NCBI GenBank assembly: GCA_019058015.1
Contig: JAHLWH010000192.1
Span: 302-64,301, forward strand
DNA length: 64,000 nucleotides
Reading direction: 5' to 3'
Origin: Promethearchaeota archaeon
Lineage (GTDB): Archaea; Asgardarchaeota; Lokiarchaeia; Sigyniarchaeales; SOKP01
Of this stretch, positions 16,015 through 40,794 are shown piece by piece (position 1 is the stretch's first letter; the number at the start of each line of letters is the position of its first letter). Both the position numbers and the translations under genes were made by a program. The notes under the pieces were generated by a model. The model ran no database searches and had not been told where the DNA came from. It saw only the letters and a list, made by a program, of their open reading frames with translations.

Positions 16015-16437
16015 TTATCCTATTTTGGCAATCCAAGATGAATTCCCTTTGATGATTTTGTACTTGTTGAATATTTTCTTATGAATTTTTTTTAAAAAAG
16101 AAAAATATTTTTTTCCAAATAAAGGTTTTCCCTCTTCCATTGCAAATAAGGTTGTACAATGCCGGTTTTCGATCATATTGATGAATTCATCGGGAGTAAA
16201 ACCGATAGGGTCAATAGGGTCAAGAGTCTCGATCAAGTCATAAAGCAATTTTGCCCTTTCATAATAATTTTTAGGTAATTTCGAAGATATCACGATTAAA
16301 TCAACATCGCTTCGCTCGTTAAAATCCCCTCTTGCCAAAGATCCATATAAAATAATGCATTTGGGATTTAATTTTTTAATAATATTTTCACAAAATTTTT
16401 TAATGCCATAATTAATAGTTTTTAAGGAAGTATTCAT
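16015..16437 (-). CDS. Minimal nucleotidyltransferase (MNT), TA-module component
   Basis: 'IILYGSLARGDFNERSDVDLIVIS' is the GS...DxD motif. 140 aa. Its start overlaps the stop of the upstream HEPN gene by 4 nt. Confidence 0.8.
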   Translation of the reverse strand: MNTSLKTINYGIKKFCENIIKKLNPKCIILYGSLARGDFNERSDVDLIVISSKLPKNYYERAKLLYDLIETLDPIDPIGFTPDEFINMIENRHCTTLFAMEEGKPLFGKKYFSFLKKIHKKIFNKYKIIKGNSSWIAKIG

Positions 16438-16829
16438 TTTTTAATACCTTTAATAAAATTAATTATTATTGACGCATTATTTAAAGCCTCTTCAGCAATA
16501 ACTTCATCATGATATTCGAATGGTGACCCTGTGGAATATGCATTTGGATATCGAGAGGGAATGTAATGTAAATCTAACTTTTTACAAGCAGTTAATATTG
16601 AAGAAACATTAATATCATGATTTTTTAGGTCGCTAGTTAATTTTGTTAAAGAGTGACCAAAAGGAGTTGATCCTAAACCATATAAAAGCGCTTTTAATGA
16701 AAACTCAGCTGCTTGTTGACATTTAAAACAGCTCCAATTGAAAAATCCATTTTTCTTATCTATTTCTGCTGATTTTAATGTATTGTCTGCTTCATTCATC
16801 CATCTATTATATTCATTATTATCAAACAT
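16434..16829 (-). CDS. HEPN-domain protein, partner of the MNT
   Basis: 131-aa helical protein ('AEFSLKALLYGLG...GHSL', 'HYIPSRYPNAY'). Translationally coupled to the MNT gene. Confidence 0.7.
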   Translation of the reverse strand: MFDNNEYNRWMNEADNTLKSAEIDKKNGFFNWSCFKCQQAAEFSLKALLYGLGSTPFGHSLTKLTSDLKNHDINVSSILTACKKLDLHYIPSRYPNAYSTGSPFEYHDEVIAEEALNNASIIINFIKGIKK

Positions 16830-21877: not shown

Positions 21878-22408
21878 TTAGTGCCCTGAACGAGATTTAA
21901 TAATTCGCCGGGTCAATTCACCAAAAGCCTCCTCAACATGCACTCCAGTCTTAGCAGATGTCTCAATGTAAATTGAATTCTCGGCCTCAGCAAATCTTTT
22001 CGCTTCCTCCCTGTCAATAACTTCACCAACATCCTCAATTAAATCAATTTTATTACCTGCAAGAACAAATGGTATGTGTTCTCCAGCAAATTGCCGAATC
22101 TCCGCTAACCATTTTCGAATATCAGCATAAGTCTGTGCCCTTGAGAGATCGAAAACTAGAAGAACACCCGCTGCACCCTTATAAAACGTGCTTCTAATGA
22201 ACTCAAATCTTTGTTGCCCCCCAATATCCCATATACTCAAAGTCGCAATCTCGTCTCCCTCATAATTAACATCCTTTGTCAAAATATCAACACCAACAGT
22301 TAGTTTATAGTTTGTAGCAAATCGATTCTTGATAAAACGCTGAACTAAAGAGGTCTTTCCCACTGCGGCAGCACCACATAAAAGAACCTTAAGCTTGTAT
22401 GAAGACAT
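21878..22408 (-). CDS. Rab/Ras-like small GTPase (stand-alone G domain)
   Basis: G1 'GAAAVGKTS', G2 'TVGVD', G3 'WDIGGQQRF', G4 'GNKIDL', G5 'ETSAKTG'. 176 aa. The C-terminus ends '...KSRSGH' with no Cys prenylation motif. Confidence 0.85.
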   Translation of the reverse strand: MSSYKLKVLLCGAAAVGKTSLVQRFIKNRFATNYKLTVGVDILTKDVNYEGDEIATLSIWDIGGQQRFEFIRSTFYKGAAGVLLVFDLSRAQTYADIRKWLAEIRQFAGEHIPFVLAGNKIDLIEDVGEVIDREEAKRFAEAENSIYIETSAKTGVHVEEAFGELTRRIIKSRSGH

Positions 22409-22431
22409 AATTAACCAATTCCTATAAATTA

Positions 22432-22470
22432 AGTTATAACGTTATTATTTTAGTTATAATGTTATTATTT
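22432..22470. repeat. Two tandem ~20-nt direct repeats just upstream of the Rab-like gene
   Basis: 'agttataacgttattattt t agttataatgttattattt', located 24-62 nt upstream of the ATG at 22408 (minus-strand gene). Confidence 0.75.
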
Positions 22471-22691
22471 AAATTATACCCCAATATAAAAATACTTTTT
22501 TATTAGATTTATATTCTTATAATCAATTTCGAATTTTTAAATTATTTTTTTTTGCCTTTATATATAAGTTATTATACGGTTTTGAATTAAAATTTTCTTA
22601 TCCTTGAGTTATTTTTAAAATAATTAAGCCTAAAAATTACTTAAATAATTAATATTTCTATCTAGTTAATAAAATAATTTAATTTAAATAA

Positions 22692-23666
22692 TTATATCGT
22701 GTAATTCCTACTTTTAGACCATTCTATATATTTTTTAAGCCCTGTTTGAATATTATATTTTGGCTCAAATTTTAAAATTTTCCTCGCTTTTGTAATATCC
22801 GCAAAACTATCTCGAATATCACCTGGTCTGGGATCTGTAAAATCAACCCCTAAATACTCCTTCTCGCATATTTTTTTTATAATATCTGCAAGTTCATTTA
22901 CAGTAATCGGAGAACTCGCTCCTATATTGAATACCTCACCTGCGATGTTATTAGCAACTCCCGAAAGTAAATTTGCATTAACTACATCTTTAATGTAAGT
23001 AAAATCCCTCCGTTGCTCTCCGTCCCCAAATACAATCGGATTTTCATCTCGATATATCCGTCCGAGCCAAATCGGTATAACTCCACTATACGTCGAATCC
23101 TTCTGTCTCGGACCATAAACATTGAAATACCTTAATGCTACAGTGTTTAACCCATAAACTTTATAAAAAGCATATAGATATTTCTCACACGCCAATTTGG
23201 CTACACCATATGGAGAAATTGGGATAAGATTCATATCTTCCTTTTTAGGTAAGGTTGGCGTATCACCATAAACAGATGAACTCGATGCAAAAATGATTGT
23301 TTCCACATCCCGAATCCTTGCTGCATTTAGTATATTGAGTGTACCATTAACATTTACCTCATTACAAGAAATGGGCATTTTGACAGATTGGGGAACACTC
23401 GTAAAAGCAGCTTCATGAAAAATGATATCAATATCCTTGCAAATCTCTAATAAAAAATCATAATCACGGATATCTGCCTTATGAAAAGTAAAATTTTGGT
23501 TTTGCAAAGAATCTTTTATATTATCCATACGTCCATTGAAAAAATTATCAATTCCAATTACACTTGCTTTCTTCTCTAATAACTCATCAGATAGATTACT
23601 CCCAATAAATCCAGCAACACCAGTTACTAAGATCCTTTTACCTTCTAATTCTAAAATATAAAACAC
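22692..23666 (-). CDS. NAD-dependent nucleotide-sugar 4-epimerase (WbpP/TviC-like SDR)
   Basis: 'ILVTGVAGFIGSNL', 'SPYGVAKLACE' (YxxxK), 'RYFNVYGPRQ'. Confidence 0.85.
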   Translation of the reverse strand: MFYILELEGKRILVTGVAGFIGSNLSDELLEKKASVIGIDNFFNGRMDNIKDSLQNQNFTFHKADIRDYDFLLEICKDIDIIFHEAAFTSVPQSVKMPISCNEVNVNGTLNILNAARIRDVETIIFASSSSVYGDTPTLPKKEDMNLIPISPYGVAKLACEKYLYAFYKVYGLNTVALRYFNVYGPRQKDSTYSGVIPIWLGRIYRDENPIVFGDGEQRRDFTYIKDVVNANLLSGVANNIAGEVFNIGASSPITVNELADIIKKICEKEYLGVDFTDPRPGDIRDSFADITKARKILKFEPKYNIQTGLKKYIEWSKSRNYTI

Positions 23667-23946: not shown

Positions 23947-24903
23947 TTAAAAGTTAATTTGCCATTGAAAATGATGTTTTAATCCTTCAGAAATTTTTAT
24001 TTTTGGGGAATATCCTAAGATTTTTTTTGCTTTATCGACGTTAGAGTATGTGATATCGACATCACCCAGTTGTTTTTCAATAAATTGAATTTTCTTCTGT
24101 TTATTTGCGATGGAATACATTTGATTGACTAATTCATTTACGGTTATCGGACTCGAGCAGCCGAGATTAAACACCTCTCCAACTGCCTCTGGTTTTTCTC
24201 CTGCGGCGATTACTCCCTCGATTATATCTGATATGTATGTGAAATCTCTAAGTTGTTCTCCATCTCCAAATATGGTTATCCCATGGTTATTAAGGATGAA
24301 ATCAAAAAATTTTCGAATTGCCATATCGGGGCGTTGGCGGGCGCCATACACAGTAAAAAAGCGTAGTGAGGTGATTGGTAGTCCATATAGTCTGTGGTAA
24401 AACTCGGCGTATTTTTCGCAGCATAGTTTTGACACGGCGTATGGTGAGATTGGGTTTTTGGGGTGGTTTTCATCTACGGGGGTATATTCCGGGTTGCCAT
24501 AGACGGAGGATGAAGAGGCGTTTACAATTTGTTTTATACTTTTATTTAAACAGAATTCAAATAATTTAACGGTTGATTTGATATTGTTGTCCATTACTTC
24601 TATTGGATGGATAATTGAATAGCGCACGCCTGCTTGTGCCGCCAGATGGAATATTATATCGATGTCATGGTCAATTTCTTGTAGAGTAGAATCATCTCTG
24701 AGGTCTTTCTTAATTAAAATAAAGTCTTCCCCGTTCTTATATTTTTGAGTTAAATCGAGCAAATTTTTTTCTTTCCCTGTGTAATATTCATTGAAGTTAT
24801 CGATTAGTATTAGAAAATTTCCGTTTCCGTTTAGCTTTTCCGCCAGATGGGAACCAATAAAGCCAGAGGCTCCAGTAATTAAGATTGTTTGATTTTTTAT
24901 CAT
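23947..24903 (-). CDS. NAD-dependent epimerase (UDP-glucuronate 4-epimerase-like SDR)
   Basis: 'ILITGASGFIGSHL', 'SPYAVSKLCCE', 'RFFTVYGARQRPDMAIRKF'. Confidence 0.85.
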   Translation of the reverse strand: MIKNQTILITGASGFIGSHLAEKLNGNGNFLILIDNFNEYYTGKEKNLLDLTQKYKNGEDFILIKKDLRDDSTLQEIDHDIDIIFHLAAQAGVRYSIIHPIEVMDNNIKSTVKLFEFCLNKSIKQIVNASSSSVYGNPEYTPVDENHPKNPISPYAVSKLCCEKYAEFYHRLYGLPITSLRFFTVYGARQRPDMAIRKFFDFILNNHGITIFGDGEQLRDFTYISDIIEGVIAAGEKPEAVGEVFNLGCSSPITVNELVNQMYSIANKQKKIQFIEKQLGDVDITYSNVDKAKKILGYSPKIKISEGLKHHFQWQINF

Positions 24904-25074: not shown

Positions 25075-28000
25075 ATGTTTGAGAAACCATCACCCCAGCA
25101 ATTAGCCGAGGAGGCAGTTCGGCACTTAGATTTAGCCGAGAAATATGAGTCTCAGCAGAATTGGGCGAAAGCTATTGTAGAATATAAGAGGGCTGTTGAG
25201 TTATTAAAACAAAGTGGGTTATTATCAGTTCATGTTGATGATATAAATGAGCGGATTATGCGTTTAACTCAAGTAGCTCAACAGGAGAAGGCATTACAGC
25301 GAAAGAAAGCCGAAGCTGAGTTTTCTGGTATAAGGGATGAAGCATTTCACTTTTTGGATAAGGCAAAGTCTTTAGAAGTCAATGGTCGTTATCAAGAAGC
25401 CATATCTCGTTATTCCTCAGCTATAAAGTTATTGGAACAGGCTAAATGGGATGAGAGTTTATTAGGACAAATCAAGTTAAAACTTGAAAAATTAATGGAG
25501 ATCTTCAAACAGCAACAAATTATGGCCCATCAAAGAGCATTACGGGCTGAACAGACACCCACCAAGGTTGAAAAGTCTTTTGGAGCTCCGGAAACTACAA
25601 TTATTCCTGCAGGACTTGATAAACGAAGTAAATTACGAATGGAATTTGAGACCCAAAAACGAAAGGAAGAGGATATACAAAATCGTGCTTTTGAATCAAT
25701 TGATATGGGTAAAAAGTTTTTGGAGGAAAAGAATTTTGATGTAGCAAAATCAAAATATCTCGAAGCTTTAGATCTATTGAGATCTATTAGATGGACTGAC
25801 GAGAATTTGTCTTATTTATATAGCGATATTGATTCGGTTGAAAGGCAGAGGGTAGCATTTGAAAAAGCAGAAAGTCAGAAAGTTGAGCAAGCTGCTAGAG
25901 CTACACCCCAACCCGTTACTTCGGAAATAGCTCCTCAGAAAGAAATAGTTCCAGAAATTATGGATGTACAATCAAAAGCAATAATGAAATATGAAGCGAA
26001 GAAAAGACGTGAGGAGGAGGTTCAAAAGAAAGCATTTGAATTGATGGATGAGGGTGAGCGTTTAATAAAGGTCAAGGAATTTGATGAAGCCATGGAAAAG
26101 TATGGTATGGCTGGGCGGCTCTTAGAATCTATTGGGTGGGCTGACCAATTAGTTCATATTAATAAAATCATTGATAAGATATATAAAGATAGAGTAAATT
26201 ATAAAAAGTTGCAAGCACAGCAAATTAAAGCAAAAGAAGCAGCGGTTACTGCACCAGTCCCTGAAATCTCAGTAAAAGCAAAAGCGAATATTGAATTTAA
26301 AAAGCAGAAAATAGTAGAGTTTGAAGAACGAAATAAGCATGAAGAGCATATTCAAGAAGAAGCTTTTAAGATGATTGATATTGCAAAACGATTTGAGCGA
26401 GAGAAGCAATATGATGGGGCAATCGAGAATTTTAATAGAGCAATTGATTTATTACAATCAATAGGGTGGACTGATTATGTTAAGCCAATATACAAGTTCA
26501 TCTCTGATATTAGAAGGAGACAAGAAAATGAACAGAAAGTTCTCGAGGAGAAAAAATCTCGAGAGAAAGAGTATTTAAAATTCCAAGAGATTATAAAAAA
26601 GCATGAAAAGATTCAGGTAGACCAGGAAGTAGAAGGAATTTCCCTAAAACAGAAAGAGCTTGAAAAGACACGGGAAATAGATCACGCAAAAGAGAAAAAA
26701 GCTTTTAATGTAATAAATGAAGCCGATGAATTGGTAAGAAAAGGCAATTATGAAAAGGCAATTAAAAATTATAAAAAGGCACGTGATATTTTTAGAGAGA
26801 TAGGTTGGGCTGATCAAATTGCGACAATTGAAACTACATTAAACACGGTTCAATATAAATATCGTGAATTTTTGAAAAATGAGGAGACAGCCAAGGAATT
26901 AAAAGTTAAGCGTGCTAAGGAAGATGAAGAATTTCGAAAAACAATTGCCGAACAGATTAGAAAAGAGAGGGAAAAGTTAGAGAAGAAAAAGATCGAAATA
27001 AGAGAATATGAAACAGAGATTGAATATCGGAAGAAAAGAAAGGTTGAAGCTTTTAAAATTTTAGATGAGGCAGAAGAATACACATTACGCGGGGATTTTG
27101 ATATTGCCATAGAAAAATATTCCATGGCATTAATGATTTTTGCAGAAATTCAATGGACTGATGAATTATCACTCATTCAAGATGCTATTCGAGATCTTGA
27201 AAACAGAAAGAAAGAAATGAGACTTCTAAAACTAAAAGAAAGAGAAGATGCTTTAAAAAGAGAAAAGGAAACAAAAGAGTTTCAGGATAAAATTTCTGAA
27301 CAATTAAGAGAGGAACGTATGAAGTTAAGAGAAAAAGAGATTACAGTTAGAGAATATGAAAAAGAAGTGAAATATCGGGAAAAACAAAAGGAGAAAGCAT
27401 TTAAGATCTTAGATGAAGCTCAAAAATTGACAATCAGTGGAGATTTTGATGATGCTATAGAAAAATATGAAGTAGCTTCGATTATTTTTGCAGAAATTCA
27501 ATGGGATGATGAGTTAGCACTTATTCAGAATGCGATTCGAGAACTTGAGAATAAAAAAATTGAAAGAGAATTATGGGAACAGAAGACTCGAGAGGTATTA
27601 TTGAAACGTGAGCAAGAAACCCAAGAATTTCAGGATATGATTGCTGAAGAATTAAGGATGGAGCGTGAAAAGTTAAGAGAGGGTCAAATTGGACTAAGAG
27701 AACACGAAGCTGAAGTAAAATATCGTGAAAATCGAAAAAATGAGGCTTTTGATATTTTAGATGCAGCAGAGATGTTAATAATGAGGGGGGATTTAGATGC
27801 TACGATTGAAAAATATCATGAGGCATCGATTATTTTTGCTGAAATTCGGTGGACAGAAGAGTTGGCACTTATTCAAGGTGCAATACGCAAACTTGAGCAA
27901 CAAAAGAAAGAGAAAGAACTGTGGGAACAAATAGTAAGAGAGGAAGCTATCAAAAGGGAACAAGAAGCAAGAGAATTTCAGCATGAAATTGCTTTAATCA

Positions 28001-31000
28001 AGAGTCAGCAAGAAGAGAAAGTAAAATTTGCGCAATATATTCAGGAACAGAAAAAAATCTTATCAGAGCAGAAATTAAAGAAACAAGAAGAAGCATTGAA
28101 AATGCTTGAGAGTTCAGATGAGCATATAAGGGAAGGAAATTTAGATGAGGCTATTAGAATTCACAAATCGGCAATAGAAATTTTTAATCAAATTGGTTGG
28201 AAAGGTCCTTATCTTAGGGTAATTAAAGATACACTAGAGAATTTAAATAGACGTAAAGTTGAAATCTCACAAAAGTTGCAACGAAGGAAGGAATTAGCAG
28301 TTAAACATGAAGCTGAAGAAAGAGAATTTCAAGCGAGAATTACTCATAATATTGAGTTAGAAAAGAAAAAAATGCTTGTTAAAAAAATCACGACTCAGAC
28401 TAAAGAACGATTACTTGCTTATCGAGAAAAAAAGCGTATTGAAGCATTTGATGTAATGAATAAGGCGGAGATTTTAACAAAACGTGGAAATTTTGATGAA
28501 TCTTTAGACCATTATCGTCAAGCTGATATTATTTTAAGTGAAATTCAATTTCCCTCACAGGCAGTTAAAGAAATGATACAGAAAATTAAATTGAAACAAA
28601 AGGAACAAAAGGAGTTATTACGGAAAGAAAGAAAGCTTCAAATTCATAGGCAATTAGAGGAGGAGACATTTCAAAAAGAAATTACTCGTCGGTTAGCACT
28701 TGAGAGAGAGAAGATGATGGTGAAGAAGATAGCAATCGAAACACGCGAGAAGATAGAAGTATATCGTGAGCAAAAACGAGAGGAAGCATTTAAGATATTG
28801 GATGAGGCGGAAGATTTAACTAAAACCGGGAATTTTGAGTTGGCAATTAATGCATATCGAAATGCCGTGCTTCTTTTAAGTAAAATACAATATCCTATTG
28901 ATTCGATTCATGAAATGATTAGAAAGGTCCGGTTAAAAAAGGTTGAACAAGAGGAACTTAAACGAAGAGAAATTAAACTGGCAGCCCAAAGGGAGAGAGA
29001 ATCAAGAGAATTTCGGGATAAAATCGCTTGGGAATTAAGAAGAGAGAGTGAGAGATTAAGAAGAAGGACAATTGCACTTATAGAATATGAAGCTGAAGTA
29101 GAATATCGTGAAGATAGAAAAAAGGAAGCTTTTGATGTGTTAGATTCAGCAAAGTTATTAACACTTAGAGGAGATTTTGATGCATCTATTGAGAAATATC
29201 GGAAAACTTCTATAATATTAGCGGAAATTCAATGGACAGAAGAATTAACACTAATTCAAAATACAATTCGTCAACTGGAAAATAGGAAGAAAGAACAAGA
29301 ACTTTGGGAACAACAATCTCGAGAAGAAGCAATTAAACGAGAACTTGAAGAGAGAGAATTTCAAGAAAAAATTACTGAGGCATTAAGAAAGGAGGGTGAA
29401 AAATTAAGAGAAAAAGAGATTGCACTTAGGGAATATGAACAAGAAAAAGAATATCGAGAAAAAAGGAGGGATGAGGCATTAAAGATTTTGGATAAAGCAG
29501 AAAAATCGACTATTGCTGGAGATTTTGATACAGCTATAGAAAAATATCATGAAGCATCAATCATTTTCGCTGAAATACAATGGACAGAGGAATTAGCACT
29601 TATTCAGAACGCAGTTCGCGATCTTGAGTATAAAAAGAAAGAACGGGTGTTTTGGCAACAAAAAGCTCGAGAAGATGCAATTTGGAGGGAATTAGAAGCA
29701 AAAAAATTTCAAACAGAGATTACTGAGGCATTAAGAAAGGAACGTGAAAGATTAAAGGATAAAGAGATTGCAATCAGAGAGTATGAAGAAGAAGTAAAAT
29801 ATCGGGAGATAAGAAAAGAGGAAGCATTTCATATTTTAGATTCAGCACAAATTTTAACAATGAGGGGAAATTTCGATGGGGCTATTGAGAAATATCATGA
29901 AGCCTCAATAATTTTAGCAGAAATTCAATGGACAGAAGAATTAGAACATATTCAAAATGCAATTAGTGAGCTTAATAAGAAAGAGAAAGAAAGAGAGCTT
30001 TGGCAACTAAAATTAAGAGAGGCAGTACTTAAACAAGAGCATGAAATAAGAGAATTTCAGCATAAAATTTCCATAATGAAAAAGAATGAAGAAGATAAAG
30101 TAAAAATGGCGCAGTTTTTACAAAAACAGCAAAAGGTTTTATCAGAACAACAACTAAAAAAGCAAAATGACGCGTTGAAGATGCTTGAAGTTGCAGATAC
30201 TCATATAAAAAGAGGTCAATTAGATGATGCTATTGAAATTTATAAATCAGCAGTAGATATTTTTAATAAGATAGGTTGGAAGGGTCCTTATCTTAAAGTT
30301 TTCCAAGATACATTTGATAATTTAACTAAACGCAAACTTGAAATCGAACAATTAAAACAACATCAAATACAATTAGCAGCTAAACGTGAAGCAGAGGAAA
30401 GAGAATTTCAAGCTAAAATTGCTCGAAGTATAGAGTCTAAAAAGAAGAAGATGCTAGCAAAAGAAATTGCTATTCAAACTAGGGAAGAAATAATTGCTCA
30501 TCGAGATAATCGACGTAATAAAGCATTTGATATTATGGATAAAGCAGAGGAATTAACTAAAGCTGGAAAATTTGATGAATCATTAACGCTTTATCGCCAA
30601 GCTGATATAATATTAAGTGAAATTCAATTTCCATCATATGCGGTAAGAGAAATGATACAGAAAATCAAAATGAAGCAAAAGGAACAAGAGGAATTACGTC
30701 AAAAAGAGAGCGAACTTCAAATAAAAAGACAATTAGAAGAAGAGGCATTTCAAAGAGAAATTGCTCGTCAGGTAGCACTTGAGAGAGAGAAGATGATAGT
30801 GAAGGAAATTGAGATTGAAACTCAAGAAAATATAAGGGCATACCGAGAAAAACGCCGAGATGAAGTATTTAAAGTATTAGATGAAGCGGAATTCTTAACA
30901 AAAAGAGGAAACTTAGATTTAGCTATTGAAACCTATCGCAAAGCAGCTCTTTATCTAACTGAAATTCAATATCCAGTTGATGCAATTTATGAAATGATTA

Positions 31001-33858
31001 AAAAACTTCGCATTAAAAAAATAGAAGAAGATCAAATGAGACAGAGAAAAATTGAAGCACCTACTCAGAGAGAGCTTGAATATAGACGTTTTCAGGAAGA
31101 GATTACTCTAGAATTGAAAAGAGAAGAGGAAAGACTCAAAGAAAAAGAAATCATACTTAGAGAATATGAAAAAGAAAAGGAATATCGTGAAACAAGAAAG
31201 AATGAAACATTCAATATTTTAGATACTGCAAAACAATTTACAATTAGGGGAAATTTTGATGCCGCTATAGAAAAATATCACGAGGCTTCAATAATTTTGG
31301 CTGAAATTCAATGGACTGAGGAATTAACAAATATTCAAAATGCTATTCGTGAACTTGAAAGGAGAAAGAAGGAAAGAGAACTTTTGGAGCAAAAAGCAAG
31401 AGAAGAAGCGCTTAGGAGGGAACAAGAAACGAGAGAATTTCAATACAACATTGTGCAAATGAAGGCAATGAACGCAGAAAAAATAAAAATGGCACAATAT
31501 ATTCAAGAACAACAAAAGGTTTTATCAGAAGCAAATTATTTAAGACAAAATGAAACGCTAAAAATGCTTGAAGCTGCAGATACATATATAAAAAGGGATA
31601 AATTAGATGATGCTATTGAAATATACATATCTGCTATGGGAATACTTAATGAAATAGGATGGAAAGGACCATATTTAAAAGTAATTCAAGACACACTAGA
31701 TAATTTAAATAAGCGCAAACTCGAAATTGAACAAATCAAACAACAGCAAATTGAGTTAGCAGTTAAACGTGATGCAGAGGAGAGAGACTTTCAGGCTAAA
31801 ATCGCACGAAGTATAGAGAATGAAAGACAGAAAATGTTAGCAAAAAAAATTGTTATTCAGACTCAGGAAGAATTACTTGCTCATCGTGAAAATAGGCGTA
31901 AGGAAGGATTTGACATTATAGATAAAGCTAAAGAAATGACGAAAGAAGAAAATTTTGAGGAAGCATTAAGACTATACCGTCAAGCCGATATAATTTTAAG
32001 TGAAATTCAATTCCCATCAAACGTTGTAAAAGAAATGATTCAAAAAGTCAAATTGAAACAAAGGGAACAAGAAGAATTACGTCAAAGAGAAAGAGAGATT
32101 CAAATTCAGAAGCAATTAGAAGAAGAAGGATTTCAAAGGGAAATTGCTTATCACATAAAGCTTGAGAAAGAAAAAATGAGGTCAAAAAAGATTGCGCTTG
32201 AAGCACAAGAAATGATTAAAGATTATCGCGAACAAATAAGAGAAGAAGCATTTAGAGTACTAGAAGAGGCAGGACAATTAACCAACTCTGGAAAATATGA
32301 ATTAGCGATTAGTGCTTATAGAAATGCCACGTTAATTCTTAGCGAGATTCAATATCCTATCGATTCAATTAATGAGATGATTAAAAAAGTTCAGAATAAA
32401 AAATTAGAGCAAGAACAGCTTAAACATATAGAAATGGAGGCAGCGTTCCAAAGAGAGCAAGAAGAAAAGTACCTTGAAGAGGAAATTGGCCAAAAAGTTC
32501 AGTTAGAACAAGAAAGAATGATGAAGAAGTTAAAAGCTATTGTATCACGTGAAAAACTACAAGTACGTTTTGAACAACGAAGAGAAGAAGCATTCAAGGT
32601 ATTAGAAGAAGCAGAACAATTAATTAAGACTGGTAACTTTGATGAAGCAATTGAAACATACCGAAAAGCTTCATTAATTCTAAGTGAAATTCAATATCCC
32701 TTAGAGTCAATCAATGAGATGATCAGAAAAGTACAAATGAGAAAGTTCCAACAAGAACAGATTATTCAACAAGGAAGGGAAGCACAACTTCAGAGAGAAA
32801 GAGAAGAGGCCGATCTTAGAAGAATTATTGAAGAACGTCAGCGTCAAGAAGAGGAAATGAAAAGAGCAAGATATTTGGCTCTAAAGCAAAGAGAAGAATT
32901 AATTGCAAGAGTAGAAAGCCGTAGAGAAGTTGCATTTTCCCTATTGGAGAATGCTGATAAATTTTTAAAGCAATTTCCTCCTGATTTTGATAAATCAATT
33001 GAGTTATATTTAGAAGCTAGAAATATTCTTTTAGAAATAAATTGGGAGCCAGAAATTGCGAATTTAGACACTTTAATCAGAAATTTAAGAGAAGAAAAAC
33101 AAAAATTTATTATTCAACAAAAGCAGGAAGAGGAGGTCCGAATTCGTGCTGCTGAAGAATATGAGAAATTTAAGCAGGAAATCCTAAGAAAAAAGTTAGA
33201 AGTTAAAAGAGTTCAAGAAGAACAACGGATAAAGCTTGAAGCATTTAAATTTGAACAAGAACAACGAGAAAAACTTCAACAAGAGGGTTTTAATCTTCTT
33301 GATGATGCAAAAAAATCAGTTTTAATGCATCAGTTTAATTTTGCTTACAAACAATTTGATCAGGCTGTTGAAAAATTTAAAAGTATTGGCTGGTTTGAAC
33401 AGATAAAATATATTGAAAAGGAAATAGAAACTACTAAGAAATTAGAAGAAAATGCAATAAAAGCACAGGAAGAGGTTAAAAGAGCTCAAGAGGCACTCTT
33501 AAAACAAAAAGGATTAGAAGAACAGCGGCGAATAGAAGAAGAAACAATGAAAATACAATCAGTTAAGGAAATTACAGCAATTTCAGATGACATTATCAAA
33601 TCATTAAGACAACAACGATTAGAACAAGAAAGTATTCAAGTTGTTACTAAAGAACAAATAAAATCAGATGCTGCAAGTTTTGCAAAAGAGTTAACAAAAA
33701 TGATTAAAATTAAACAAAATTTAGTAGCAGAAATTGAAAAAGCTGAAGAGGACGAGAAACAAAAAGCAATAGAGAAAGAAAAACAAAAAACCAAGGAAGA
33801 ACTAAAAGATCTACATAAAAGGATAAAAGATGCTGCCAAAAAATCAAAGAAAAAATAA
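25075..33858 (+). CDS. Giant (2,927 aa) cytosolic repeat protein: ~25 MIT-like three-helix modules separated by Glu/Arg/Lys-rich helices
   Basis: Uninterrupted 8,784-nt ORF with no TM or signal segment. The recurring unit is 'EAFxxLDxAExLxxxGxFDxAIExYxxAxxIxxEIxW..EL..IQxAIxxLE', followed by 'REFQxxI...REYExExEYRExRK'. Confidence 0.9.
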   Translation: MFEKPSPQQLAEEAVRHLDLAEKYESQQNWAKAIVEYKRAVELLKQSGLLSVHVDDINERIMRLTQVAQQEKALQRKKAEAEFSGIRDEAFHFLDKAKSLEVNGRYQEAISRYSSAIKLLEQAKWDESLLGQIKLKLEKLMEIFKQQQIMAHQRALRAEQTPTKVEKSFGAPETTIIPAGLDKRSKLRMEFETQKRKEEDIQNRAFESIDMGKKFLEEKNFDVAKSKYLEALDLLRSIRWTDENLSYLYSDIDSVERQRVAFEKAESQKVEQAARATPQPVTSEIAPQKEIVPEIMDVQSKAIMKYEAKKRREEEVQKKAFELMDEGERLIKVKEFDEAMEKYGMAGRLLESIGWADQLVHINKIIDKIYKDRVNYKKLQAQQIKAKEAAVTAPVPEISVKAKANIEFKKQKIVEFEERNKHEEHIQEEAFKMIDIAKRFEREKQYDGAIENFNRAIDLLQSIGWTDYVKPIYKFISDIRRRQENEQKVLEEKKSREKEYLKFQEIIKKHEKIQVDQEVEGISLKQKELEKTREIDHAKEKKAFNVINEADELVRKGNYEKAIKNYKKARDIFREIGWADQIATIETTLNTVQYKYREFLKNEETAKELKVKRAKEDEEFRKTIAEQIRKEREKLEKKKIEIREYETEIEYRKKRKVEAFKILDEAEEYTLRGDFDIAIEKYSMALMIFAEIQWTDELSLIQDAIRDLENRKKEMRLLKLKEREDALKREKETKEFQDKISEQLREERMKLREKEITVREYEKEVKYREKQKEKAFKILDEAQKLTISGDFDDAIEKYEVASIIFAEIQWDDELALIQNAIRELENKKIERELWEQKTREVLLKREQETQEFQDMIAEELRMEREKLREGQIGLREHEAEVKYRENRKNEAFDILDAAEMLIMRGDLDATIEKYHEASIIFAEIRWTEELALIQGAIRKLEQQKKEKELWEQIVREEAIKREQEAREFQHEIALIKSQQEEKVKFAQYIQEQKKILSEQKLKKQEEALKMLESSDEHIREGNLDEAIRIHKSAIEIFNQIGWKGPYLRVIKDTLENLNRRKVEISQKLQRRKELAVKHEAEEREFQARITHNIELEKKKMLVKKITTQTKERLLAYREKKRIEAFDVMNKAEILTKRGNFDESLDHYRQADIILSEIQFPSQAVKEMIQKIKLKQKEQKELLRKERKLQIHRQLEEETFQKEITRRLALEREKMMVKKIAIETREKIEVYREQKREEAFKILDEAEDLTKTGNFELAINAYRNAVLLLSKIQYPIDSIHEMIRKVRLKKVEQEELKRREIKLAAQRERESREFRDKIAWELRRESERLRRRTIALIEYEAEVEYREDRKKEAFDVLDSAKLLTLRGDFDASIEKYRKTSIILAEIQWTEELTLIQNTIRQLENRKKEQELWEQQSREEAIKRELEEREFQEKITEALRKEGEKLREKEIALREYEQEKEYREKRRDEALKILDKAEKSTIAGDFDTAIEKYHEASIIFAEIQWTEELALIQNAVRDLEYKKKERVFWQQKAREDAIWRELEAKKFQTEITEALRKERERLKDKEIAIREYEEEVKYREIRKEEAFHILDSAQILTMRGNFDGAIEKYHEASIILAEIQWTEELEHIQNAISELNKKEKERELWQLKLREAVLKQEHEIREFQHKISIMKKNEEDKVKMAQFLQKQQKVLSEQQLKKQNDALKMLEVADTHIKRGQLDDAIEIYKSAVDIFNKIGWKGPYLKVFQDTFDNLTKRKLEIEQLKQHQIQLAAKREAEEREFQAKIARSIESKKKKMLAKEIAIQTREEIIAHRDNRRNKAFDIMDKAEELTKAGKFDESLTLYRQADIILSEIQFPSYAVREMIQKIKMKQKEQEELRQKESELQIKRQLEEEAFQREIARQVALEREKMIVKEIEIETQENIRAYREKRRDEVFKVLDEAEFLTKRGNLDLAIETYRKAALYLTEIQYPVDAIYEMIKKLRIKKIEEDQMRQRKIEAPTQRELEYRRFQEEITLELKREEERLKEKEIILREYEKEKEYRETRKNETFNILDTAKQFTIRGNFDAAIEKYHEASIILAEIQWTEELTNIQNAIRELERRKKERELLEQKAREEALRREQETREFQYNIVQMKAMNAEKIKMAQYIQEQQKVLSEANYLRQNETLKMLEAADTYIKRDKLDDAIEIYISAMGILNEIGWKGPYLKVIQDTLDNLNKRKLEIEQIKQQQIELAVKRDAEERDFQAKIARSIENERQKMLAKKIVIQTQEELLAHRENRRKEGFDIIDKAKEMTKEENFEEALRLYRQADIILSEIQFPSNVVKEMIQKVKLKQREQEELRQREREIQIQKQLEEEGFQREIAYHIKLEKEKMRSKKIALEAQEMIKDYREQIREEAFRVLEEAGQLTNSGKYELAISAYRNATLILSEIQYPIDSINEMIKKVQNKKLEQEQLKHIEMEAAFQREQEEKYLEEEIGQKVQLEQERMMKKLKAIVSREKLQVRFEQRREEAFKVLEEAEQLIKTGNFDEAIETYRKASLILSEIQYPLESINEMIRKVQMRKFQQEQIIQQGREAQLQREREEADLRRIIEERQRQEEEMKRARYLALKQREELIARVESRREVAFSLLENADKFLKQFPPDFDKSIELYLEARNILLEINWEPEIANLDTLIRNLREEKQKFIIQQKQEEEVRIRAAEEYEKFKQEILRKKLEVKRVQEEQRIKLEAFKFEQEQREKLQQEGFNLLDDAKKSVLMHQFNFAYKQFDQAVEKFKSIGWFEQIKYIEKEIETTKKLEENAIKAQEEVKRAQEALLKQKGLEEQRRIEEETMKIQSVKEITAISDDIIKSLRQQRLEQESIQVVTKEQIKSDAASFAKELTKMIKIKQNLVAEIEKAEEDEKQKAIEKEKQKTKEELKDLHKRIKDAAKKSKKK
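25438..33420 (+). repeat. In-frame array of 24 modules at 330-351-nt spacing (plus one shorter N-terminal module)
   Basis: The anchor is the codon three residues before the conserved W/F/Y. Anchors start at 25438, 25783, 26128, 26458, 26797, 27145, 27493, 27841, 28189, 28540, 28882, 29224, 29572, 29920, 30268, 30619, 30961, 31303, 31651, 32002, 32344, 32686, 33034 and 33382. I checked all of them to be in frame with 25075. Confidence 0.9.
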
Positions 33859-33883: not shown

Positions 33884-35464
33884 TTAAATATTTTTTATTT
33901 CAATAAAGTATTTTTTAAGATTTCTGTTTATATAAATTATTCCAATTATCATTAGAGCCGAAATTGCTACTACAATTAATAATCTATAATCAAAAATTAT
34001 TGATAATATAAAACTTCCTGAACCACTGCCAAATATCAATTTTACAACTAAGAAATAATCATGATTGTTTGGTACAAAAATTCCGCATCTTCTATAGAAA
34101 TCGAATTGGTTAATGGTTGAAGCAGTTATTATAGGTTCTCCATAATAATTAGGATTGGTATCAAAAATATAAAGCTCTGCTTCTGCATCATTTAATAGAG
34201 CTAGATCAAAAAAATAATGCATTCCACCTTGTAAGTTAATTTTTCTACACCACACTTTTTTTTGATTAGAATTATCTCCCAAGGAAAAACAAACACTATT
34301 ATTGTTTTCAAAACTTACATATAGGTCCAATGCATCTATAGCAGCATAACCTTGAATCATTCCCCATCCTTGATAATTATCTTTAATAGCTCTTGGATAG
34401 ATGGTTTTTATGGAAGTTAAAGAAATAATACTTTTTACTTCAAGGGGTTTTAAGGAAGGGTCTTTTTCAAGCATTAATGATGCTAAGCCGCTAACCATAG
34501 GCGCTGCTACAGATGTCCCTGAAGCATATATATAAGTATCATTTCTCCCAAAATCATCCTTTGTAGCTCCATATATATCGACAGCAGGTGCGCATAAATC
34601 CGGTTTGATAATATTTTCACTAGAAGGACCTTTACTGCTTTTTGAATACATTATTCCATTGCTTTTCACACCACCGACACCAATAACCGATTTTGCATCA
34701 GCTGGAGAAGTAATTGTGTGAAAACCTGTTCCCTCTTCTCCATCATTCCCTACAGCAGCTACTACAACTATTCCTGCTTCCATCAAGGATTCTGTGATTG
34801 AATTTAAGAGTTTTATTGAATTACTATCTGTGGAAGCTTCTAACCCAAAACTCATACTCACTATTTTAATATTATATTTAATTTTATTCTCAAGAACCCA
34901 ATCAATCCCATTTTCAACGGCTTGAATAGAAGATATTAATTCATCATCCTCTTCAGAGAATTCAAAAACTTTTATGGCCACCAAATTTGCCTCAGGGGCT
35001 ACTCCAAGATATTGGGGTGAATTTCCTGCTGCAATTGATGAAACGTATGTTCCATGCGAATTAATATCCTCCGGACTTTTTTCTTTTTGATCAAAAGCAT
35101 CGTAAAACGCAACAATTTTTTCATTCCAAGAGATGGTTCCATTATTTGTGAAAACATCATGATATGGATAAATTCCCGTGTCAAATATTGCAATAGTTGA
35201 ATTTTTTCCGCTTAAATCATCATCGATAAAAGATTTATTTAAGCTAATTAAATCACTCACTTGAAATTGAGAAACAGCAGCTGTCTTAATGGGTGCTTGA
35301 TTGGTTTGAAGATTCAAATTATAATTTGGATTTAATGAAAAAGTTATTTGATTTAAATGATTCATTAAAAAAAGATAGGGAGAATTAAGCCAGATTACTA
35401 TTAACCAGAAGAAAATCCATTTTTTATTTAAAAATTGTTTGCACCCATTTGAATAGTAAAACAT
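33884..35464 (-). CDS. Subtilisin-like serine protease (peptidase S8), N-terminal signal/anchor and C-terminal TM
   Basis: Catalytic triad contexts are 'IAIFDTGI' (Asp), 'NSHGTYVSSIAAG' (His) and 'SGTSVAAPMVSGLASL' (Ser). There is a hydrophobic N-terminus and a C-terminal 'LLIVVAISALMIIGIIYI' segment. Confidence 0.85.
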   Translation of the reverse strand: MFYYSNGCKQFLNKKWIFFWLIVIWLNSPYLFLMNHLNQITFSLNPNYNLNLQTNQAPIKTAAVSQFQVSDLISLNKSFIDDDLSGKNSTIAIFDTGIYPYHDVFTNNGTISWNEKIVAFYDAFDQKEKSPEDINSHGTYVSSIAAGNSPQYLGVAPEANLVAIKVFEFSEEDDELISSIQAVENGIDWVLENKIKYNIKIVSMSFGLEASTDSNSIKLLNSITESLMEAGIVVVAAVGNDGEEGTGFHTITSPADAKSVIGVGGVKSNGIMYSKSSKGPSSENIIKPDLCAPAVDIYGATKDDFGRNDTYIYASGTSVAAPMVSGLASLMLEKDPSLKPLEVKSIISLTSIKTIYPRAIKDNYQGWGMIQGYAAIDALDLYVSFENNNSVCFSLGDNSNQKKVWCRKINLQGGMHYFFDLALLNDAEAELYIFDTNPNYYGEPIITASTINQFDFYRRCGIFVPNNHDYFLVVKLIFGSGSGSFILSIIFDYRLLIVVAISALMIIGIIYINRNLKKYFIEIKNI

Positions 35465-35572: not shown

Positions 35573-37165
35573 ATGGAACCGATGGAAAAAAGGGAATTTT
35601 CCTTAGAAGAAAGAAAGATGTATGCTCGTCAGCAGCTCGTTGAAGGCTGGGATCAAGAGACTATAAAAAATAGTTGTGCTTTGATTATTGGAGTTGGTGC
35701 TCTCGGGTGCGAGATCGCTAAGGATTTAGCTTTAATGGGTATAGGGAAATTAATTTTAGTTGATATGGATAAAATTGAAACCTCAAATCTCTCAAGACAA
35801 ATGTTATTTCATGCAGGAGATGAGGGTAGAACAAAAGTTGAGGTTGCCGCAGAGCGTTTAAAATTGATGGCTCCGTTTCTCGAAGTTGAGTATTATTTTG
35901 ATAAATTACAAAATCTTCCAATGAAGGTGTATGAAGAATCGGATGTTATTGTTGCTGCATTAGATAATGTTAGGGCAAGAATGGATTTAAACAAGATTGC
36001 TTTAAGATTAAAAAAACCAATGGTTGAGGGTGGTACTGTAGGATTTGAGGGGCACGTTCAAAACATTATCCCAAAAGGCTCAAATATAAAATTCCATGAG
36101 AGAGAAAAAGTTATAGATGAAATAGTGCAAGAGAAATTATGGAATTTATCTGAAGAAGAATATACTGAATATTTTGCTGCTCAAGAAAGTATAGAAAAGC
36201 TTGAGGAGCGAATATCTCTATTAAAATCTCAATTTATCGAGCAGGTTGTTGAAAAAGTACGCCAGCAAGTTGGAAATGAGTTTGATGAAAAATATTCTGA
36301 AGATTATCTTGATCAAACAGCTTGTTATAGGTGTCTAGTTCCTATTCCACCACCTGATGATAAATTAATTGCAGCATGCACATTAAAAGGTATTCCGAGA
36401 AATAGAAATCATTGTGTTTTAAAAGCAGAGTTAAATTTTGAAAAGAAATATGGACGGATGCCAGATTTGGATAATGATGAGGATATATACAAATTAATGG
36501 AATTGGCTCAAGAGGAATTAGAATTATTACAAGAACGAGTTTTTAAAGAAAACGTCTCTGATGAGCAATTATCAACATTATCAGAAGAAGAAATGCAAAA
36601 GTGGAAGATTAATATTCGAGATACTTTCGGTCCAAATTATGTATTTGAAGATATGGAAAATATTTTAGGAAATAAAATCGCTGCGGTTCAGACTGTTAGT
36701 TCAATTATCGCAAGTATTCAATCCCAGGAGGCACTAAAATTAATATTTAGAGCAAAGGGAAGGGATATTGGTCCCCCCATGGATCCTCCTTATGTAAATT
36801 ATAGCGGAATTTATGGAATATTCGAGCAGGTTCCGGTGTTTAAACGAGAAGATTGTATTGATTGTGGGGATATTGAAGGAGAGGAAAATGTTAGTATTGT
36901 AGTTCCATTTAATTCAAAGGTTAAAGACATTTTTAGTGCATTGGATGTTTCTGGTTATAAATTAGATTCCGAAAAGTGGATGATCACGAATTCAATGAAT
37001 AAAGAGATTCTTTGGCATCCCTCAATTCCCACTTTTAAAGATCCTGAAGCTCTATTACAAAGCCTAAAAATAACGAGTAATGACGTTGTAACATTTACAC
37101 CTTTAAGTAACGATATTGGTGAATTAGAAATAAAAAAATATAATGTAATCGTTTCCTATTTGTAA
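35573..37165 (+). CDS. Ubiquitin-activating-enzyme (E1)-like protein, ThiF/MoeB/UBA family
   Basis: Adenylation domain: 'IIGVGALGCEIAKDLALMGIGKLILVDMDKIETSNLSRQMLF' and 'LDNVRARMDLN'. Zn-type Cys pairs: 'CYRC' and 'CIDC'. Eukaryote-type active-site context: 'AACTLKGIPRNRNHC' (Cys codon 36377-36379). There is also a ~90-aa C-terminal domain. Confidence 0.85.
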   Translation: MEPMEKREFSLEERKMYARQQLVEGWDQETIKNSCALIIGVGALGCEIAKDLALMGIGKLILVDMDKIETSNLSRQMLFHAGDEGRTKVEVAAERLKLMAPFLEVEYYFDKLQNLPMKVYEESDVIVAALDNVRARMDLNKIALRLKKPMVEGGTVGFEGHVQNIIPKGSNIKFHEREKVIDEIVQEKLWNLSEEEYTEYFAAQESIEKLEERISLLKSQFIEQVVEKVRQQVGNEFDEKYSEDYLDQTACYRCLVPIPPPDDKLIAACTLKGIPRNRNHCVLKAELNFEKKYGRMPDLDNDEDIYKLMELAQEELELLQERVFKENVSDEQLSTLSEEEMQKWKINIRDTFGPNYVFEDMENILGNKIAAVQTVSSIIASIQSQEALKLIFRAKGRDIGPPMDPPYVNYSGIYGIFEQVPVFKREDCIDCGDIEGEENVSIVVPFNSKVKDIFSALDVSGYKLDSEKWMITNSMNKEILWHPSIPTFKDPEALLQSLKITSNDVVTFTPLSNDIGELEIKKYNVIVSYL

Positions 37166-37174
37166 AACTTTCAA

Positions 37175-37804
37175 TTATACTTTATTTTTTACTTGTGCTT
37201 TCCTAATATTCGCAATGAATTTTTCAATAAAGTAAGTTTTTATTTTAGCATTTTTACCTGCTTCCATATCAAACTCAGAATCCCCTATATAAATAGCTTG
37301 TTCGTTAGAAATATTAAAATGTTTTAGAATTTTGTAAAGACCCTCGGGATCGGGTTTCCATTCAACAACATCTTCTCTTCCAACTATATATTGAAATTTT
37401 CCTAAGAGATTCTGTTTAGACAAAATAGAAAAAATTGTTGAGCGAAAGTTTAAAGAAAAGATTGCTAATTTAATATCTGAATTCAATCCCAACTTTTCTA
37501 AATTCTCGATAAAAAAAACGATTTCTTCAAAGAAGGTATATTCTTTTATATTATCTCTTTCAAATTTTTCAATAGTTCGAATATAAGATTCAATTAATTC
37601 GGGATCTCCTCTCGCTACAACTTTTTGTAAACCTAAAGTAATTCTACTAAATGTTTGTTCTTCTCCAAAATCATCCATATATTTATCACTAAGTAATTTA
37701 CGCAGAGCATCCCAATCAACATGTAATTTTACAAGAGTTCCATCAAAATCAAAAACTACTACTCGCAAATCTTTTGGAAAATCCAATAATTCACTTAGCA
37801 ACAT
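37175..37804 (-). CDS. HAD-superfamily phosphatase
   Basis: Motif I 'VVVFDFDGTLV' and motif IV 'GDSEFDMEAG'. Confidence 0.8.
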   Translation of the reverse strand: MLLSELLDFPKDLRVVVFDFDGTLVKLHVDWDALRKLLSDKYMDDFGEEQTFSRITLGLQKVVARGDPELIESYIRTIEKFERDNIKEYTFFEEIVFFIENLEKLGLNSDIKLAIFSLNFRSTIFSILSKQNLLGKFQYIVGREDVVEWKPDPEGLYKILKHFNISNEQAIYIGDSEFDMEAGKNAKIKTYFIEKFIANIRKAQVKNKV

Positions 37805-37911
37805 TAATTAATTTATTTTTATTTTTTATTCATTTATTATTATGGTGGATTAATTTTTGAAAGAAAAGAAAAGAAAAATGAAGTCTTTAAAGATATTTCT
37901 ATAAAAGATTT

Positions 37912-38421
37912 CTAATCCATGGCGTATTTTTTTGTCCAGCTCTCTGCTTTTTTATCAAATTTCGATTTTTGTCTAAAATATTGTTCTCCCGCTTCATGAT
38001 TTAAAGGATCGCCAGGATTAAAAAATGGTGGTTCCACATGCATCATTCCCTTCAATGCTTCGACAATATTTGTTAAAGTTTTAGAAGGAGTCCATCCTGA
38101 AGCTCCAGTAGAGGCATCAACCTTACCTACAAGATCGGGATTTATAAGATCAAGACAGATATTCAATTTTCCTGGCGGAATTGAAGAGTCGATATTAGGA
38201 TGCCACATTAAAGTATGGGCATAAACATATGGAGGTGCAAAAGGATAATTCTCAGGCATTTTTATCTCAAACAAGAATCTACCCCCACTATATGGAGTTG
38301 CTGGTTTTCCAATTATAGTAAGCCTTAAATGATCTATTGATCTTCCCCAAGGTTCGATAATTACAAAATTAATTTCTTTAAATGCCTCAATTGCTTCTGC
38401 ATAATCAGTTTCTTCTCTAAT
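37912..38421 (-). CDS. Ubiquitin-conjugating enzyme (E2, UBC fold)
   Basis: 'GKPATPYSGGRFLFEIKMPENYPFAPPYVYAHTLMWHPNIDSS...GKLNICLDLI' is the UBC HPN...C signature (Cys codon 38157-38155). The C-terminus 'AESWTKKYAMD' resembles UBE2D '...REWTQKYAM'. The track ORF (TTG at 38274) removes the first ~50 residues of the fold, and the frame is open up to 38424. Confidence 0.8.
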   Translation of the reverse strand: MREETDYAEAIEAFKEINFVIIEPWGRSIDHLRLTIIGKPATPYSGGRFLFEIKMPENYPFAPPYVYAHTLMWHPNIDSSIPPGKLNICLDLINPDLVGKVDASTGASGWTPSKTLTNIVEALKGMMHVEPPFFNPGDPLNHEAGEQYFRQKSKFDKKAESWTKKYAMD

Positions 38422-40662: not shown

Positions 40663-40794
40663 CCCCTGGTAGCTCAGTGGTAGTAGCGCACGGCTGTAGA
40701 TTTTTATCGCGTATTGAGAAAAGAATCAATGAAAATACGTCAGCTAAAGCGAATAGATACCGTGTGGTCGCTGGTTCAAATCCGGCCCAGGGGA
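40663..40794 (+). tRNA. tRNA-Tyr (anticodon GUA) with ~59-nt intron at the canonical 37/38 position
   Basis: My manual fold: acceptor CCCCTGG/CCAGGGG; D arm GCTC-AGTGGTAG-TAGC; anticodon stem CACGG/CCGTG with loop CT-GTA-GA; T arm GCTGG-TTCAAAT-CCGGC; discriminator A. The intron spans ~40700-40758. No CCA is encoded. Confidence 0.85.

Follow-up and report, generated by a model that had tools for sequence, protein, structure and literature searches.

Titin, the giant ruler protein of muscle, is built from super-repeats that change by whole blocks, and in spectrin a single unbroken helix ends one repeat and begins the following one. To our knowledge, the described proteins with MIT domains contain one or two of them rather than 14–25. 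Nebulin shows a two-level repeat hierarchy with block-wise changes in copy number (PMC7754682, PMC9109913). Here, we analyzed a giant repeat-protein gene in a 64,000-nucleotide (nt) stretch of the genome of a Promethearchaeota archaeon (assembly GCA_019058015.1, contig JAHLWH010000192.1), hereafter the window. The product of this gene, the array protein, resembles nebulin and titin in that its modules are grouped into multi-module super-repeats, whole blocks are gained and lost, the block number varies between species, and position-specific module types are conserved across the super-repeats. It differs from them in its fold and domain of life, its 2–3 blocks, its all-helical module of ~116 amino acids (aa), and in having no known filament partner.

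With a probability of roughly 0.8, we consider the repeat region to be the central, lineage-specific expansion of a giant cytoplasmic Asgard repeat-protein gene, generated by unequal recombination of multi-module blocks. In this course of events, two rounds of unequal recombination between diverged modules copied multi-module blocks, yielding the order AAABCD / AAABCD / ABCD + D, and all copies were then kept by purifying selection without insertions or deletions (indels). The same process later removed four modules in one relative (P0007) and independently added four- or six-module blocks elsewhere in the family. As a mechanism this is ordinary, because two-level hierarchies and block-wise copy change are well known from nebulin and titin; it is textbook multi-module unequal crossover, but an unusually clean case.

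Repeat hierarchy of the array gene

The array gene is a single open reading frame (ORF) at 25075–33858 of the forward strand with 2,927 codons, encoding a protein of 2,927 aa; the opposite strand of this segment contains no ORF of at least 100 aa, and the G+C content of the window is 29%. A 117-position hidden Markov model of the module identified 25 modules of 114–117 aa (~116 aa) in the protein, with the module boundaries set at the phase of the 'REFQ' motif. The modules start with the motif '(R/K)EFQxxI' and share the core 'EAFxxLDxAxxLTxxGxFDxAIExYxxAxxILxEIQW'. Four types are distinguished by their anchor motifs, namely EIQW(T/D)(D/E)EL for type A (EIRW in one module), IGWKGPYL for type B, EIQFPS for type C, and (E/K)IQYP(I/V/L)(D/E)S/A for type D. 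The initial annotation had read the module order as A A A B C D / A A A B C D / A B C D D, which the anchor motifs match exactly, and had placed the first A of each block at 27145, 29224, and 31303, twice 2,079 nt apart, positions that we confirmed for the first A anchors.

All parts of the array lie on the forward strand. Block 1 (26926–29004; 2,079 nt, 693 aa) consists of A1.1 (26926–27273), A1.2 (27274–27621), A1.3 (27622–27969), B1 (27970–28320), C1 (28321–28662), and D1 (28663–29004). Block 2 (29005–31083; 2,079 nt) repeats this composition with A2.1 (29005–29352), A2.2 (29353–29700), A2.3 (29701–30048), B2 (30049–30399), C2 (30400–30741), and D2 (30742–31083), and its in-register modules are 64–77% identical in DNA to those of block 1. 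Block 3 (31084–32466; 1,383 nt, 461 aa) contains a single A module, A3 (31084–31431), followed by B3 (31432–31782), C3 (31783–32124), and D3 (32125–32466). An extra D-type module with an FP/YP turn, D3b (32467–32808), follows block 3. Outside the super-repeat lie six N-terminal modules, n1–n6 (25075–26925), with a mutual identity of 17–36%, and two C-terminal modules, c1 and c2 (32809–33513), of which c1 carries an 'INWEPEI' turn found family-wide. The gene ends with a non-modular C-terminal tail (33514–33858).

Autocorrelation of the DNA over 27145–32700, where the in-frame background identity is 0.323 ± 0.009, revealed self-identities of 0.438 at a lag of 348 nt (z = 13), 0.525 at 1,383 nt (z = 23), 0.588 at 2,079 nt (z = 30), and 0.602 at 3,462 nt (z = 32). 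The 2,079-nt periodicity thus persists in a formal autocorrelation, and it is stronger than the single-module periodicity of 348 nt, which marks a genuine super-repeat. At the protein level, the top lags are 1,154, 693, and 461 aa, best first. Block 3 aligns with A2.3-B2-C2-D2 at lag 1,383 (DNA identity of 0.67–0.80) and with A1.3-B1-C1-D1 at lag 3,462 (0.68–0.72). Tandem Repeats Finder reported only parts of the 348-nt period and missed the super-repeat, because the longest period there is 500.

Comparison of the modules revealed protein identities of 55–66% within type A, 58–68% within type B, 63–70% within type C, and 47–60% within type D, as against 19–47% between types. In a neighbor-joining (NJ) tree, the modules cluster by type across blocks, as had been anticipated, with bootstrap values of 100% for B, 100% for C, 80.5% for A, and 94% for C and D together. 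Equivalent modules have diverged at the DNA level (B1 and B2 are 73% identical), also in agreement with the initial annotation. Its statement that equivalent modules are closest to each other across blocks holds for B, C, and D and fails for the three A positions, which carry no positional signal.

Two relatives at 89% (L005) and 93% (L006) aa identity gave whole-gene ratios of nonsynonymous to synonymous substitution (dN/dS) of 0.24 and 0.33, respectively. Per module, dN/dS between the window and L005 is 0.12–0.38 for all modules, and among paralogous modules of the window gene it is 0.14–0.29, which shows purifying selection on all modules and retention of every copy. The synonymous divergence (dS) of paralogous modules is 0.87–1.6, reaching 2.35 or saturation in some pairs; with dS of ~0.9–1.6 and an aa identity of 61–64% between blocks, the block copies are old. 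Blocks 1 and 2 differ at 38% of their aa and yet have the same series of module lengths (116/116/116/117/114/114 aa for A A A B C D), with no indels in any copy. These lengths recur in homologs of ~35% identity and were unchanged in all homologs examined, down to ~33% identity. Module length is evidently strongly constrained, and its constancy suggests that geometry imposes the limit, as it would in a ruler or rod.

Metagenome assembly of repeat arrays is error-prone, and a hierarchy of this kind could in principle reflect mis-joined repeats or a decaying pseudogene lacking a selected function. We rejected both, and consider the chance of either to be negligible. The blocks are 64–79% identical in DNA, too diverged for collapse or expansion during assembly, and the same architecture is found in other sequences: six further distinct 25-module sequences (P0001–P0006, from Logan, JGI, and NCBI) contain the 2,927-aa ORF with 89–93% identity, and the locus is also present in a Promethearchaeota metagenome-assembled genome (MAG), matched over query residues 1–2917. 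Decay of a pseudogene is contradicted by the intact reading frame and by the purifying selection seen in the whole-gene dN/dS of 0.24–0.33.

Family architecture and history of the blocks

The homolog search yielded 53 relatives, all of them Asgard wherever the source names an organism, and the closest ones are recorded as Promethearchaeota or Lokiarchaeota. The nearest genome is MAG CSMAG_2237, with 93% aa identity, and every database name found for the array protein is 'hypothetical protein'. Block number varies among the relatives, a point that the initial annotation had left to such a comparison: they fall into classes of 14, 15, 18, 20, 21, and 25 modules (P0036, with 14 modules, is listed with 15, its last module being matched twice). 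The 14-module homologs (32–37% identity) consist of n1–n5, A.1 A.2 A.3, B, three FP/YP-turn modules, c1 ('WEPE'), and c2, the window gene having one N-terminal module more. P0008 (49% identity) has 15 modules, with the core of the 14-module homologs and six N-terminal modules, while P0007 (64% identity) has 21 modules, in the order n1–n6, AAABCD, AAABCD-D, c1, c2. The loci of P0007 and P0008 share flanking genes for an aspartokinase, a Ras-like GTPase, a subtilase, a ThiF protein, and a HAD hydrolase, and the two are therefore positional orthologs.

Comparison of these architectures suggests that the ancestral core is a position-specific series A.1 A.2 A.3 B C D D', flanked by five to six N-terminal and two C-terminal modules; D3b of the window gene occupies the position of the third FP/YP-turn module in the ancestral AAA-B-C-D-D order. 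Since this order is the architecture of the 14-module homologs and of the 15-module P0008, the types and their succession are far older than the block duplication, which bears out the earlier proposal that the types had differentiated before the blocks were copied. The existence of four module types, as first described, holds in the window lineage and does not extend to the family at large, where A.1, A.2, and A.3 are distinct modules. The duplication leading to AAABCD / AAABCD / ABCD + D is specific to the window lineage, after the split from P0008 and before the split from P0007. Elsewhere, an additional [A.2 A.3 B C] is found in an 18-module clade and an additional six-module AAABCD-like block in a 20-module clade. 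In a tree of B and C modules, the 18-module paralogs form sister clades and the 20-module paralogs lie near each other, though not as strict sisters. Both sets of paralogs stand well apart from the window clade. Blocks have been gained independently in three lineages, and duplication of blocks in the A–D zone is recurrent. A distant 18-module relative, P0050 (2,064 aa, 24% identity, from an ENA metagenome), has nearly identical first several modules that indicate a very recent tandem amplification, in contrast to the old, diverged blocks of the window gene.

The relation of the window gene to P0007 was examined with a concatenated tree of B, C, and D, in which the three window sets and the P0007 sets form one clade with P0008 outside. 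BCD1 is paired with the first P0007 set, BCDx (100% bootstrap), and BCD3 with the second, BCDy (98.6% in protein, 100% in DNA); BCD2 is without a partner in P0007. The six P0007 A modules are orthologs of A1.1–A1.3 (Ax.1–3) and A2.1–A2.3 (Ay.1–3), with bootstrap values of 67.8–99.4% overall and 67.8–98.6% for Ax.1–3. The segment missing from P0007 corresponds to 29962–31344 of the window's forward strand, 1,383 nt that begin at codon 88 in A2.3 and end with codon 87 in A3, and contains the C-terminal part of A2.3, B2, C2, D2, and the N-terminal part of A3, equal to four modules. Analysis of informative sites revealed that Ay.3 of P0007 is chimeric: its first 261 nt side with A2.3 rather than A3 at 47:11 sites, and the sequence after them sides with A3-B3-C3 rather than A2.3-B2-C2 at 98:67 (Fisher p = 1e-7; permutation p < 2e-4). 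The P0007 lineage lost four modules through one unequal crossover between A2.3 and A3. This deletion, which lies outside the window gene itself, is the only event that is cleanly reconstructed, to within a few codons.

The shorter P0007, lacking exactly the segment B2-C2-D2-A3, could also be taken as the ancestral 21-module state, with the window lineage having recently inserted this segment, but we regard that polarity as very improbable. BCD2 is not nested within the BCD1 or BCD3 of the window clade, which pair with their P0007 orthologs, and it is only 62–64% identical in aa to either BCD1 or BCD3, compared with 71–75% between the window and P0007 orthologs. Moreover, both ends of the missing segment lie in the middle of an A module, and a single A2.3 × A3 crossover turns the 25-module order into that of P0007, whereas no single homologous crossover from 21 modules yields the window order. 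The nearly equal distance of BCD2 from the other sets, the one-way crossover, and the orthology of the sets together indicate that the three blocks predate the split of the window and P0007 lineages and that P0007 was secondarily shortened. The single-A block 3 was present in the common ancestor with P0007 and is therefore old. In divergence from P0006, an ortholog of the L005 type, block 2 (88% identity) stands between block 1 (92%) and block 3 (86%).

The A modules show no register between blocks. Across blocks, their DNA identity averages 70% in register and likewise 70% out of register, the closest pair by protein identity is A1.3–A2.1, and no signal of positional A-to-A orthology between blocks was found in identity matrices, third-position identity, dS, or identity per module quarter. 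The 2,079-nt register therefore rests on the order of types and on B, C, and D. In most of the family, A.1, A.2, and A.3 form separate position-specific groups, and when the modules of the window gene and of P0008 are placed in one tree, the ten A modules fall together in a single clade (99% bootstrap). This pattern implies that the A modules were homogenized by concerted evolution, or re-amplified, before the block duplications, which would explain their missing register signal.

How the blocks arose within the window lineage admits two histories, which we find about equally tenable and each of which can be put forward only tentatively. A six-module block may have been copied twice to give 27 modules, after which the third block would have lost two A modules by an unequal A × A crossover. 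Alternatively, the present arrangement would have been reached without loss by a four-module duplication, of [A B C D] (1,383 nt), together with a six-module duplication (2,079 nt), in either order; an AAABCD-ABCD-D intermediate, for example, could have undergone an A × A crossover between modules six positions apart. The two exact 2,079-nt spacings speak for the history with a loss, as does the fact that A3 is nearer to all three A modules of block 2 (71–74% in DNA) than to those of block 1 (68–70%). Block 2 is, moreover, a weak mosaic, with informative sites for block 1 against block 3 at 29:44 in B, 22:35 in C, and 49:32 in D; this change from block 3 to block 1 is the expected trace of an unequal crossover between blocks 2 and 3 in six-module register, although it is weak (permutation p = 0.02). 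The same history requires three events, compared with two for the one free of loss, and predicts a 27-module stage that is represented by no relative among the homologs found. It also predicts a chimeric A3, and no chimerism marking the loss of two A modules is detectable in A3, whose N-terminal part and core are nearest to A2.3 and whose C-terminal part is nearest to A2.1, within noise. The initial annotation had suggested just such a loss or an unequal crossover; A × A crossover does occur in the family, as the P0007 deletion demonstrates, and the signature in A3 is missing.

A separate four-module step, in turn, agrees with the strong lag of 1,383 between A2.3-B2-C2-D2 and A3-B3-C3-D3 (0.67–0.80), with B2–B3 (75%) and C2–C3 (79%) as the closest pairs by raw DNA identity, with A1.3–A2.1 (66%) and A1.2–A2.2 (66%) among the closest A pairs, and with the independent four-module block duplication in the 18-module clade. 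It is opposed by trees that pair block 2 with block 1 rather than block 3, both in protein NJ (92.8%) and at codon positions 1 + 2 (97.8%), and by a smaller dS for B1–B2 (0.87) than for B2–B3 (1.14). Different codon positions, and different modules, give contradictory signals: third codon positions pair block 2 with block 3 (84.8%), single-module trees disagree on the block order, and the informative quartet sites for that order split 6:3:2. Of the duplication of a whole 693-aa block that had been proposed, the copying of blocks is borne out by B, C, and D, and the copying of AAA in register is not demonstrable.

Predicted fold and possible role of the modules

In a Pfam scan of the whole array protein, MIT (PF04212) was the top family with 147.5 bits (cut-off 30), a sum of many partial matches, and several TPR families were also matched, TPR_11 with 99.9 bits; A-type modules scanned singly gave no Pfam MIT match. 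A profile of 24 module cores searched against PDB sequences matched consensus-TPR proteins through a 20-residue motif and, with longer coverage, the MIT domains of calpain-7 (E = 3e-4), VPS4A (1.5e-3), and Sulfolobus Vps4 (7e-3), together with the MIT chains of NRBF2 and SKD1 (E up to 0.04). Among single-domain PDB sequences, only MIT chains were matched over at least 45 positions of the profile. A phmmer search of PDB sequences with one whole block returned weak TPR matches only.

AlphaFold2 (AF2) modeled a single core as a three-helix bundle with a predicted local distance difference test (pLDDT) score of 84. Two consecutive cores (195 aa, 23 paralogous rows) reached a pLDDT of 92.8, with helices at residues 2–25, 28–44, 48–140, 144–160, and 165–194. 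In this model, the third helix runs for 93 residues (48–140, pLDDT 90–97) into the first helix of the next module, a predicted continuity of the spectrin type. In a Foldseek search, MIT domains, including the N-terminal domains of katanin p60, made up about half of the top 50 matches and predominated among those to natural proteins, for example VPS4B (TM 0.70, root mean square deviation 2.1 Å), Sulfolobus Vps4 (TM 0.70), and the katanin p60 N-terminal domain (TM 0.77). Taken together, the module is predicted to be an MIT/TPR-like three-helix bundle with spectrin-like connectivity between modules.

Comparison with the described folds shows where the module departs from each. Like the MIT domains of Vps4/CdvC, calpain-7, MITD1, NRBF2, USP8, and katanin p60, it is predicted to have a three-helix core in which helices 1 and 2 form a TPR-like hairpin; unlike those proteins, the array protein and its relatives have 14–25 units and a helix 3 that runs into the next module, and no single module reaches the Pfam cut-off. 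With the rods of spectrin, alpha-actinin, and dystrophin it shares tandem three-helix bundles of ~106–116 aa, duplicated arrays, and, in the AF2 model, a helix continuous between units, while its helix 2 is short (17 residues) and ~40 residues of its connecting helix are predicted to be exposed. The Pfam spectrin repeat (PF00435) was ruled out, as the whole-protein scan gave no Spectrin match at E ≤ 1. TPR models and consensus-TPR (CTPR) structures are matched through the motif 'G-x-(F/Y)-D-x-A-I-x-x-Y-x-x-A'; in contrast to TPR solenoids, however, the array protein has one TPR-like hairpin per 116-aa module and no stacking. A stacked TPR solenoid was thus ruled out, the TPR/CTPR matches spanning ~20 residues and the hairpins being set apart by the long (93-residue) helices.

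The C-terminal tails of 49 homologs were compared. Across the family, the tail carries the amphipathic motif '(D/E)(D/E)(I/L)x(K/R)(M/R/W)(I/L)(K/R)(D/E)', followed a few residues on by a lysine-rich end; in the window, both are encoded at 33790–33855, the last ~22 codons of the gene. We take this motif to resemble the MIM1 helix of ESCRT-III. When 23 of the tails were combined into a profile and compared with PDB sequences, no ESCRT-III tail was found, the matches being designed coiled coils only, with E > 1.

The product of the gene would be an elongated, length-quantized, multivalent scaffold, in which three-helix bundles are predicted to sit on a continuous helical backbone. With each duplicated block, the scaffold would gain length and binding sites in fixed steps while the A-B-C-D succession is kept, and the preservation of this succession suggests that the module types differ in their partners or geometric roles. 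The likeliest ligands of the modules would be short helical motifs of the MIT-interacting type, a suggestion that we hold with low confidence. Further-reaching, and in our view distinctly unlikely, is the idea that the protein could be an undescribed Asgard cytoskeletal or membrane-remodeling scaffold. Such a scaffold would be a rod, probably >100 nm long, of 14–25 MIT-like bundles with a conserved amphipathic MIM-like helix and a lysine-rich end; its possible activities are multivalent binding of ESCRT-III-type tails, recruitment of Vps4, or head-to-tail self-association, with its length set in quantized blocks as in nebulin, and perhaps tied to the neighboring E1/E2-like and GTPase genes. 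If it is one, it would be a new component of the eukaryote-like machinery of Asgard archaea, and binding of ESCRT-III-type motifs by its modules, if it occurs, would make the protein a new participant in the Asgard machinery that bears on the origin of eukaryotic membrane remodeling. An array of 14–25 MIT-like bundles appears to be undescribed: in the literature on Asgard MIT/ESCRT proteins, giant Asgard repeat proteins, and tandem MIT domains in Lokiarchaeota, we found no published description of the family, and in our homolog searches the giant MIT/TPR-like array was found only in Asgard archaea.

Several observations tell against the account given here. The evidence on how the two duplications were ordered and how large their units were points different ways, depending on codon position and module. 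The A modules hold no register information, and gene conversion may have blurred other relationships as well. As for the fold, the best single module scores 27.9 bits against the MIT cut-off of 30 and covers only MIT positions 2–39 of 66, no Foldseek match has an E-value below 0.05, and the fit to designed three-helix bundles is as good as that to MIT domains. AF2 predicted the long exposed helix from 23 paralogous rows, and this helix could instead pair in a dimer or pack within the full-length protein. The synteny described below is between related genomes and may reflect common descent, not function.

Genes around the array

Synteny was examined at five loci, the window and L001–L004, two of which have array proteins only 33–36% identical to that of the window. 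A Ras-family small GTPase gene (21878–22408, reverse strand; Pfam Ras, 164 bits) lies upstream of the array gene, and a ThiF-family E1-like gene (35573–37165, forward strand; Pfam ThiF, 191 bits) lies downstream, each at all five loci. Further downstream is a UQ_con (E2-like) gene (37912–38274, reverse strand; Pfam UQ_con, 64 bits); an E2-like gene is found near the array gene at four of the five loci, and the fifth (L002) ends before that position. At the two loci with the 33–36% identical array proteins, the E1-like gene stands directly after the array gene on the same strand, 160–196 nt away. In the window, a subtilase (Peptidase_S8) gene (33884–35464, reverse strand) lies between the array gene and the E1-like gene; this intervening gene is limited to the clade of the window, P0007, and P0008, and in L003 and L004 the E1-like gene follows directly. 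The gene order suggests that the array protein may be functionally linked to the Asgard ubiquitin system or to the small GTPase.

Other features of the surroundings were noted. Directly upstream of the array gene are two paralogous NAD-dependent epimerase/dehydratase genes (22692–23666 and 23947–24903, both reverse strand), of which only one is present in L001, L005, and L006. Adjacent HEPN and nucleotidyltransferase genes (16015–16829, reverse strand) resemble a toxin-antitoxin pair, and L005 has two such genes upstream of its array gene. The ORF at 17663–19519 (forward strand) encodes an Arf/Roc-type GTPase of 618 aa, whose C-terminal part weakly matches a CdvA-like coiled coil (24.3 bits, cut-off 30), and a similar GTPase of 612 aa is encoded near the giant gene in L004. 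A tRNA match of 132 nt at 40663–40794 (forward strand; Rfam, 46 bits), missed by ARAGORN, is probably an intron-containing archaeal tRNA. Two short AT-rich tandem repeats at 22429–22478 (20 nt × 2.5) and 37807–37856 (21 nt × 2.4) lie just outside the ORFs at 21878–22408 and 37175–37804.

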